A stretch of DNA of 6,312 nucleotides, from IMG/VR virus record IMGVR_UViG_2703718871_000012; one strand, 5' to 3'. The translations under genes were made by a program, and so were the position numbers. Below the pieces are notes generated by a model. That model was not told the DNA's origin, did not search any database, and was given only the letters and a program-made list of their open reading frames with translations. Source of the DNA: a virus (taxonomy: Duplodnaviria; Heunggongvirae; Uroviricota; Caudoviricetes). Positions 4,222 to 4,473 of the stretch are shown piece after piece; position 1 is the first letter of the stretch, and every line of letters begins with the position of its first letter.

Positions 4222-4473
4222 ATGGGATACGGTTTACTGGATATTGCAAATCAGTCGCGGCGTGAGGCATTACAGGGAATAAGTGACGCAGACAGACGAC
4301 GCACAGAGATTGAGGCATCAAATAAACAACTGGCTGCTCAACAGAAAGCTCAGAAAAAACAGAATATCGGTACGGGCATTGGTACGGGGGCGGCTATTGG
4401 CGCATCCGTTGGTGGTCCTGTTGGCGCTGTTGCTGGTGCAGTAATTGGCGGCATTGCTGGTTCTTTGTTTTAA
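4222..4473 (+). CDS. Small protein, 83 aa, with polar coiled-coil-like N-terminus and C-terminal glycine-zipper hydrophobic segment
   Basis: ATG 4222 with AGGGGG at 4212-4217; TAA at 4471-4473. C-terminus GTGIGTGAAIGASVGGPVGAVAGAVIGGIAGSLF carries repeated GxxxG/GxxxA spacing. No signal peptide. Confidence 0.75.
   Translation: MGYGLLDIANQSRREALQGISDADRRRTEIEASNKQLAAQQKAQKKQNIGTGIGTGAAIGASVGGPVGAVAGAVIGGIAGSLF

Follow-up and report, generated by a model that had tools for sequence, protein, structure and literature searches.

What is the function of a very short gene that lies within a block of phage structural genes and carries the name of a toxin in public records? This question is raised by an 83-amino-acid (aa) open reading frame (ORF) in a stretch of 6,312 nucleotides (nt) of viral DNA (IMG/VR record IMGVR_UViG_2703718871_000012, here termed the window), which encodes a polar helix followed by a C-terminal glycine zipper. 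We propose, at a probability of about 0.5, that its product is a small accessory member of the internal-virion, or ejection, module of short-tailed Shiga toxin (Stx) phages and their relatives. The gene is not new as an object, as it has already been sequenced, catalogued, deleted and detected by mass spectrometry (MS). What is new is that its 'bacteriocin' label is unsupported and that, judged from sequence comparisons, its family looks like a free-standing form of the zipper module found at the C-terminus of gp7-type ejection proteins and in tape measure proteins. Shiga toxin genes are spread by short-tailed Stx phages, whose means of DNA delivery is poorly understood. The gain is a corrected annotation and some insight into this delivery; the general view of phage biology is unchanged, and a specialist will not be surprised.

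The small gene occupies a fixed site among virion genes

The window matches 198 phage records at 96–97% identity, nearly all of them from short-tailed Stx phages (933W, Sp5, phi24B and P13374; Sepvirinae), and by this sequence match it is the late region of such a phage. The orthologues of the 83-aa ORF, whose translation is MGYGLLDIANQSRREALQGISDADRRRTEIEASNKQLAAQQKAQKKQNIGTGIGTGAAIGASVGGPVGAVAGAVIGGIAGSLF, are Sp5 ORF78 (ECs1240, 83 aa), phi24B gp49 (vb_24B_46) and P13374 ORF76. They are 92–95% identical to the window protein, the same range as is seen with E. coli prophage proteins, are equally long, and occupy the same site between a 148-aa and a 421-aa gene. The window allele differs from them by a few substitutions in residues 28–45 and otherwise in nothing essential. 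Because the upstream stop codon (4210–4212) and the next start codon (4484, preceded by AGGAG at 4473–4477) are so near, the ORF lies within a tight operon. The gene is a real, translated late gene, and the tryptic peptide EALQGISDADR, which corresponds to residues 15–25 of the window protein, appears in the accessible part of the phi24B virion peptide list.

The position of the gene between gp50-like and gp48-like genes, upstream of a gene for a giant polyvalent protein, is conserved. A search for related loci with a closer family alignment gave 11 loci, and 18 loci were analysed. The order of the genes corresponding to Sp5 ORF75-76-77-78-79 is kept in all 17 loci that have a full-length homologue of the small protein; these derive from E. 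coli, Vibrio, Aeromonas and metagenomes, with 29–60% identity outside the Stx phages. The remaining locus holds a long ORF whose match is confined to the zipper. Expressed in amino acids, the conserved layout is ~125, 218, ~150, ~80 and 420–560, followed by the giant protein. The giant ORF is found downstream of the ORF79-like gene in the 17 loci wherever the contig reaches, as are the other neighbours, except that two of those in one locus (L008) fell under the tblastn cut-off and were found by blastp. Distant homologues at the same site come from a Vibrio splendidus prophage, Aeromonas phage phiARM81mr, a metagenomic contig, another bacterial genome and several IMG/VR contigs.

Homologues of gp51 are present in ~104 isolated Vibrio phages. 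In D80, the one of these that was examined, the entire module is found, with a 77-aa counterpart of the small protein. None of the 83 genes of D80 is annotated as an integrase or repressor, and the collection that contains this phage has been described as predominantly virulent. Because the whole module is kept in this apparently virulent phage, we regard the small gene as a core virion-module gene and not as a lysogenic-conversion gene.

As a family, the small proteins are coherent. The window protein matches PHROG 594 from end to end (residues 1–83 against profile positions 1–85 of 85, E = 1.8e-44), and a profile search of 1.84 billion representatives returned 503 cluster representatives at E ≤ 1e-3. 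Among the best 150 matches nearly all are full-length proteins of 71–102 aa, and the five long exceptions among the top matches are tape measure proteins. The family signature consists of a start M-[GS]-Y-G-L-[LI]-D, a polar helix, and a zipper that ends in -(S)LF.

The 'bacteriocin' name is not supported

In RefSeq records the product of P13374 ORF76 is named 'bacteriocin', which would make the protein a secreted class II peptide toxin. Apart from the name itself, this reading can draw on weak Pfam matches to Bacteriocin_IIc (PF10439) and MccV. The former falls short of its cut-off (19.5 bits against 27.1) and reaches E ≤ 1e-3 in just 13 of 144 family members, and the latter has an E-value of 0.48. 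NCBIfam yields sub-threshold zipper matches only (for example PdsO, 40 bits against a cut-off of 152) and no bacteriocin model. The protein has no double-glycine leader of normal length, its polar N-terminus being 48 residues long as opposed to the 15–25 residues of a leader, and no exporter or immunity gene is annotated between positions 20,000 and 60,894 of the P13374 record. Moreover, the site of the gene inside the structural operon is conserved, and all of its neighbours are virion-module genes. We therefore find a toxin function scarcely credible. Weak matches to LeoB/LeoBC in PADLOC (14.7 bits) were judged to be noise.

A polar helix is followed by a glycine zipper of low hydrophobicity

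An earlier interpretation, made from the letters of the window and here called the sequence-only reading, had described a polar N-terminus with a charged helix, a C-terminal zipper rich in Gly, Ala, Ile and Val, and the absence of a signal peptide, and all three descriptions hold. Residues 1–48 are polar with a net charge of +3, and AlphaFold2, run on an alignment of 144 sequences, predicts a helix from residue 3 to ~45 with a predicted local distance difference test (pLDDT) score of ~90 (79–92 over residues 1–40). The overall model is one long helix, with confidence limited to its N-terminal part; a model built from 8 sequences (pLDDT 55) was set aside. As none of the 19-residue segments within residues 1–48 has positive Kyte–Doolittle (KD) hydropathy, the protein has no signal peptide, and since it contains no Cys it has no lipobox either. 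Cys is present in only 1 of 144 relatives.

Residues 49–83 carry no charge and include 12 G, 7 A, 5 I and 4 V. They form two half-zippers, G52/G56/G60 and G68/G72/G76, with the end -GSLF. This segment contains eight GxxxG pairs where 3.36 are expected (p = 8e-4, 100,000 composition-preserving shuffles), and the same test gives p < 0.05 for 83% of 144 relatives. In addition, G56, G68, G72 and G76 show little or no variation among relatives at 25–55% identity. The shuffle results and the conservation within the family therefore confirm the zipper as a feature beyond chance.

The segment is only borderline hydrophobic. The best 19-residue stretch of the protein has a KD value of 1.6–1.7, and a simplified Hessa insertion sum, computed without position weighting, is +4.95 kcal/mol (family median +5.0), compared with +0.77 for the holin, −1.38 for Rz and +0.52 for a DUF1378 protein of the same phage group. 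By these simplified, predictive measures the zipper is probably not hydrophobic enough to serve as a classical transmembrane anchor. The term 'tail-anchored', which had been applied to the protein, is thus confirmed only in part.

These values bear on the proposal, also made in the sequence-only reading, that the protein is holin-like or a lysis protein that depolarises the membrane. Its small size, hydrophobic-looking C-terminal segment and GxxxG motifs are what such a proposal would start from. However, a separate holin-lysozyme-Rz cassette is located ~20 kb upstream in P13374, plaques still form when the Sp5 orthologue is deleted, the insertion sum is far less favourable than that of the real holin, and the gene resides within the virion module. 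We have abandoned this proposal as very improbable. The accompanying idea that the protein is a channel component of its operon points in a plausible direction, with the correction that the operon is the internal (ejection) module of the virion and not a lysis or toxin operon.

Of the Pfam glycine-zipper families, to which the same reading had pointed, Gly-zipper_YMGG (PF13441) does match (25.7 bits, E = 9.1e-6), with a score below its gathering cut-off of 28.9; a Pfam scan found it at E ≤ 1e-3 in 70 of 144 family members. Like the window protein, PF13441 and the 'glycine zipper 2TM' family Rick_17kDa_Anti (PF05433) have two short glycine-zipper helices joined by a turn. Members of families of the YMGG and 17-kDa antigen type are, as a rule, lipoproteins that carry a signal peptide and lipobox and are secreted, whereas the window protein has a polar N-terminus and lacks signal peptide, lipobox and Cys. 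An envelope lipoprotein was accordingly rejected as an identity for the protein on the grounds of its polar N-terminus, its lack of Cys and the sub-threshold YMGG score. A search of PDB sequences with the family profile gave just two hits, a prion protein and a tape measure chain (9ki1_g), both at E ~0.15.

The family resembles the C-terminal part of P22 gp7 and tape measure proteins

One likeness is to gp7 of phage P22. The Pfam model P22_gp7 (PF25688) matches 21 of 144 family members (best E = 1.7e-8), with nearly the whole small protein aligned to profile positions ~152–230 of 230. In a profile–profile comparison by hhalign, the family and P22 gp7 align with 92% probability (E = 6.8e-7), which pairs GPVGAVAGAVIGGIAGSLF with TPWGAAIGGGIGLLGSLF at both C-termini. 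Conversely, the family hidden Markov model (HMM) scores 17.3 bits on P22 gp7, over residues 153–228. As a control for composition, the last 45 or 80 residues of gp7 were shuffled, and none of 500 composition-preserving shuffles reached this score (mean −14 to −15, maximum 2.2 bits), and the reversed gp7 sequence scored −15. On the strength of these alignments, the family shares ordered similarity with the C-terminal third of P22 gp7.

Both P22 gp7 and the small proteins have a polar helix rich in Q, N and A, then a glycine zipper that ends in ...PWGAAIGGGIGLLGSLF at the extreme C-terminus, and both are encoded in a podovirus internal-protein block by a gene that is followed by one of 420–470 aa. 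P22 gp7 differs in being 229 aa long, in having a cleaved N-terminal leader and in being essential, whereas the window protein has 83 aa, lacks the first two-thirds of gp7, and has a dispensable orthologue in Sp5. According to a review, P22 gp7 belongs with the ejection proteins of the T7 gp14-like class, which become inserted into the outer membrane. Other work suggests that gp7 makes up the part of the conduit nearest to the virion, on the tail hub.

Tape measure proteins of siphoviruses offer a second likeness, in that they contain a G-zipper / P / G-zipper unit that matches PHROG 594 positions ~45–84. They repeat this unit, which is richer in aromatic residues there, 4–8 times within 800–1400 aa, while the window protein has one zipper unit and a short helix to carry it. 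According to earlier work cited in a study of the type VI secretion system (T6SS) effector Tde1, tape measure proteins exit the virion and are believed to make a membrane channel or to be in contact with one. Tde1 itself is a precedent, as its glycine zipper is required for membrane permeabilisation and for translocation; the authors of that study noted the likeness of this zipper to the C-termini of tape measure proteins. Tde1 resembles the window protein, by description, in having repeated GxxxG in a delivered protein; it differs in that its zipper is N-terminal, belongs to a DNase toxin and is delivered by another machine. We found no match in the literature that combines 'glycine zipper' with 'ejection protein'.

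Deletion and virion data are consistent with an accessory role

A published study of Sp5 describes 43 in-frame deletion mutants, including one of ORF78 (the ORF78 primers match the window sequence). Nine late genes were found to be essential. ORF78 is not among these, nor among the mutants flagged for altered titres. Two neighbours, ORF79 (421 aa) and ORF80 (2793 aa), proved essential and were placed under 'tail formation', and deletion of ORF76 strongly lowered lysogenisation.

A 2026 preprint on phi24B combines cryo-electron microscopy (cryo-EM) with virion proteomics. There gp47, gp48, gp50 and gp51 are estimated at ~11–73 copies per virion (by proteome, gp51 ~14–41, gp50 ~22–73 and gp48 ~18–56), all four are given as 'ND' in the cryo-EM model, and the authors propose that the giant gp47 is an encapsidated ejection protein. 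The small protein, listed as 'gp49 E. coli bacteriocin', gave 6 counts upon batch hydrolysis and 13 in total from purified virions. It was discarded as a contaminant solely 'based on functional annotation', so that the misleading name has already removed it from one proteomics study. From the 6 counts and the authors' normalisation we obtain ~3–9 copies per virion, or 7–20 if just the 39 trypsin-observable residues are counted, a basis that is usable because the zipper forms one 37-residue peptide without a cleavage site. The accepted structural proteins gp54 and gp62 gave 7 and 6 counts for 205 and 245 residues, respectively, and are thus 2.5–3 times as long as gp49. Candidate gp49 peptides for targeted MS are EALQGISDADR and GYGLLDIANQSR. 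The accessible part of the supplement to a proteome paper on phages of enterohaemorrhagic E. coli makes no mention of the 83-aa protein.

Several observations weigh against placing the protein in the ejection module. The Sp5 ORF78 deletion is viable without a reported phenotype, and in Sp5 tail-fibre labelling is lost when ORF79 or ORF80 is mutated, which is not how ejection-protein mutants classically behave. The MS signal of gp49 is small, with one gp49 peptide in the accessible part of the peptide list, and its level is similar to those of Bor (2–7 copies) and Lom, which are plausible membrane-vesicle contaminants; the MS data are thus suggestive but do not decide the matter. No cryo-EM density shows gp49. 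The zipper half of the AlphaFold2 model has a pLDDT of only 53–67 with the 144-sequence alignment. With regard to gp7, glycine-zipper similarity is prone to low-complexity artefacts, the P22_gp7 scores of the relatives tested (17.6–21.9 bits) are all below the 28-bit cut-off, and the window protein itself has no P22_gp7 match in Pfam at E ≤ 1. Since the similarity is confined to the last third of gp7 and the window protein misses the model, the protein is not a member of the gp7 family.

Non-essentiality is no objection in itself, because ORF77 (gp50) and ORF76 (gp51), which are abundant virion proteins, can also be deleted. The viability of the ORF78 mutant does mean that any role in ejection must be accessory. 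The same genetic and proteomic data, together with the site of the gene, could be explained by a non-structural assembly factor that loads or arranges gp51, gp50, gp48 and gp47 in the procapsid and then largely leaves (compare P22 gp14). P22 gene 14, which is small and annotated only as 'head morphogenesis', adjoins gene 7, and the fixed site of the window gene among internal-protein genes, the low apparent copy number of gp49, and a long, confidently predicted helix suited to protein–protein contacts would all fit such a factor. Yet infection remains possible without the small gene but not without gp48 or gp47, and the conserved zipper with its -SLF end, which is common to the ejected gp7, is left unexplained. 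For these reasons we consider an assembly factor improbable.

The comparison with Bor and Lom raises a further alternative, namely that the protein is a late small membrane protein of the infected cell that is never packaged, acts at the host envelope (for example on integrity, lysis timing or superinfection), and enters virion preparations in membrane vesicles. The authors of the phi24B study treated the outer-membrane proteins Lom and Bor as contaminants at an MS level equal to that of gp49, the uncharged C-terminal glycine zipper resembles those of membrane proteins, and the deletion is tolerated in Sp5. Against this, the hydrophobicity of the segment is far under that of the holin and spanin of the phage itself, and in half of the family the last 30 positions include a charged residue. 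The gene also stays in the structural block in each of the 17 loci noted above and is kept in the apparently virulent Vibrio phage, and its product has ordered similarity to P22 gp7 and to tape measure proteins, which are surely virion-borne. An unpackaged membrane protein is thus unlikely.

A possible role in DNA delivery

If the 83-aa protein is indeed an accessory member of the ejection module, from a few to about twenty copies of gp49 would be packaged together with gp51, gp50, gp48 and gp47 and would exit the capsid at infection. The long N-terminal helix might dock on a partner or build a helical bundle, and the weakly hydrophobic zipper hairpin (GxxxG-GGP-GxxxGxxxG-SLF) would be soluble or partner-bound inside the capsid. 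After ejection, the zipper helices could pack against each other by way of their glycine faces, and the hairpin could enter a host membrane, or form a seal with it, as part of a trans-envelope conduit for DNA. In this way gp49 would aid DNA delivery and still be dispensable on a laboratory host, as an accessory or redundant component like gp50 and gp51.

More tentatively, and at rather less than even odds, we suggest that the ~80-aa family represents, as a protein of its own, the C-terminal module by which gp7/gp14-type ejection proteins engage the membrane. Those T=9 podophages that have giant internal proteins (the Stx phages and their Vibrio and Aeromonas relatives) would then build a divergent ejection apparatus, with the small outer part divided among gp51, gp50 and gp49, followed by the gp15-sized gp48 and the giant gp47 at the position of gp16. 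Should this hold, the signal dismissed from the phi24B data would come from a genuine, previously unrecognised virion component. Placing the protein in the ejection module, with its testable links to P22 gp7 and the tape measure zippers, offers the hypothesis of a common glycine-zipper hairpin in those virion-borne proteins that engage host membranes.

Organization of the block and its neighbours

The coordinates of the small gene, its parts and its neighbours are collected in Table 1. The two terminator-like hairpins each precede a T run and together bracket the ORF76-77-78-79 block on the plus strand. Within the block a consensus scan found no further hairpin of this kind, and from 2400 to 6312 no sigma-70-like promoter was found. 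The product of ORF75 is absent from the phi24B virion protein list.

Table 1. Positions of the 83-aa gene, its segments and the surrounding features in the 6,312-nt window.
Feature	Position	Strand	Basis and remarks
83-aa ORF	4222..4473	+	ATG 4222, TAA 4471-4473; ORF listing and sequence
Ribosome-binding site AAGGGGG	4211..4217	+	4 nt 5′ of the ATG, overlaps upstream stop 4210-4212; read from sequence
N-terminal polar helix, residues 3-48	4228..4365	+	AlphaFold2; family alignments
C-terminal glycine-zipper segment, residues 49-83	4366..4470	+	Shuffle test; conserved glycines; sub-threshold Gly-zipper_YMGG; gp7 and tape measure matches
GGP turn, residues 64-66, separating the zipper halves	4411..4419	+	Alignments
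First gene of block, 125 aa (Sp5 ORF75)	2636..3013	+	PHROG 610; homologues at same site in other loci
218-aa gene (Sp5 ORF76, phi24B gp51)	3107..3763	+	PHROG 611
148-aa gene (Sp5 ORF77, phi24B gp50)	3766..4212	+	PHROG 596
421-aa gene (Sp5 ORF79, phi24B gp48)	4484..5749	+	PHROG 601
Giant polyvalent protein gene, start (Sp5 ORF80, 2793 aa; phi24B gp47, 2811 aa)	5819..6312	+	Translation; LPD5 annotation; runs past window end
Terminator-like hairpin (putative)	3065..3084	+	5′ of ORF76-79 block; consensus scan
Terminator-like hairpin (putative)	5782..5801	+	Between 421-aa gene and giant gene; consensus scan

Two of the neighbouring proteins have N-termini of some interest. The ORF76 (gp51) protein starts with MGGSKGGGD..., kept as MGKGG in relatives, which resembles the mature N-terminus KGGKGGADKS of P22 gp7, and its C-terminal part contains the glycine-rich hydrophobic stretch ASLVGAGLGAAGAY. 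The notion that this protein is the N-terminal counterpart of P22 gp7 was not supported by hhalign (2.4% probability), and Pfam returned nothing for ORF76- and ORF77-like proteins from five phages. The gp48-like protein starts with MSGFAQGLLAGF (4484–4540) and the small protein with MGYGLLDIANQ (4222–4250). Glycine-aromatic-leucine starts recur in the homologues of both, and this may be a shared N-terminal motif that serves, for example, in capsid incorporation.

The small gene exists as two alleles among nearly identical Stx phages, one of 83 aa (as in the window) and one of 90 aa, found in phage phiSTEC1589-Stx1c (L002, 12587–12859) and in a second locus (L013, 10001–10270). In its mid-zipper part, around the GGP turn, the longer allele is extended by seven residues and differs by several substitutions. 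In L013 the flanking genes are 99–100% identical to those of the window and the small gene is only 86% identical, from which we conclude that the small gene varies faster than its neighbours or has been exchanged separately. Three database entries (P0083, P0045 and P0153) join the small protein, or its first 60–86 residues, to the start of the gp48-like protein encoded downstream; the window has these two genes in different frames. These fusions may be real products of read-through or deletion, or they may be assembly errors.

The junction 3′ of the small gene is a repeated point of insertion. Vibrio phage D80 (L023, 13224–14015) carries an HNH endonuclease gene on the opposite strand at this junction, and the Vibrio splendidus prophage (L004, 10268–11699) has four opposite-strand genes and a 114-aa gene there. 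The GenBank record of phage phiSTEC1589-Stx1c (PQ600364.1) is misannotated across the module (9677–12859), in that the homologue of the 83-aa protein is labelled 'N4-family major capsid protein', the ORF75- and ORF76-like proteins 'portal protein', and an adhesin 'terminase large subunit'.

Other features of the window

Upstream of the block, positions 1377–2524 hold a gene for a YadA-like trimeric autotransporter (YadA head repeat and membrane anchor) that is split between a signal-peptide ORF (1377–1568) and a main ORF (1595–2524) in different frames. Positions ~1450–1663 cannot be aligned to the intact 404-aa gene of phage phiSTEC1589, and the split gene may be a pseudogene, the result of a sequencing error, or a gene with a divergent N-terminus. 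This insert is missing from most Stx phages (65% versus 85% query coverage). The left edge of the window is entered by the C-terminal part of a tail fibre gene (73–693), which matches PHROG tail fibre families and, weakly, the C-terminus of lambda gpJ. It is unlike the corresponding part of most Stx phages, whose alignment to the window begins at 712. Finally, a strongly hydrophobic 46-aa ORF at 895–1035, which shortly precedes the adhesin gene, is the counterpart of P13374 ORF72, for which the annotation is 'MokW-like host killing' or 'prophage host toxic membrane protein', and is a candidate for a small toxin of the Hok type.

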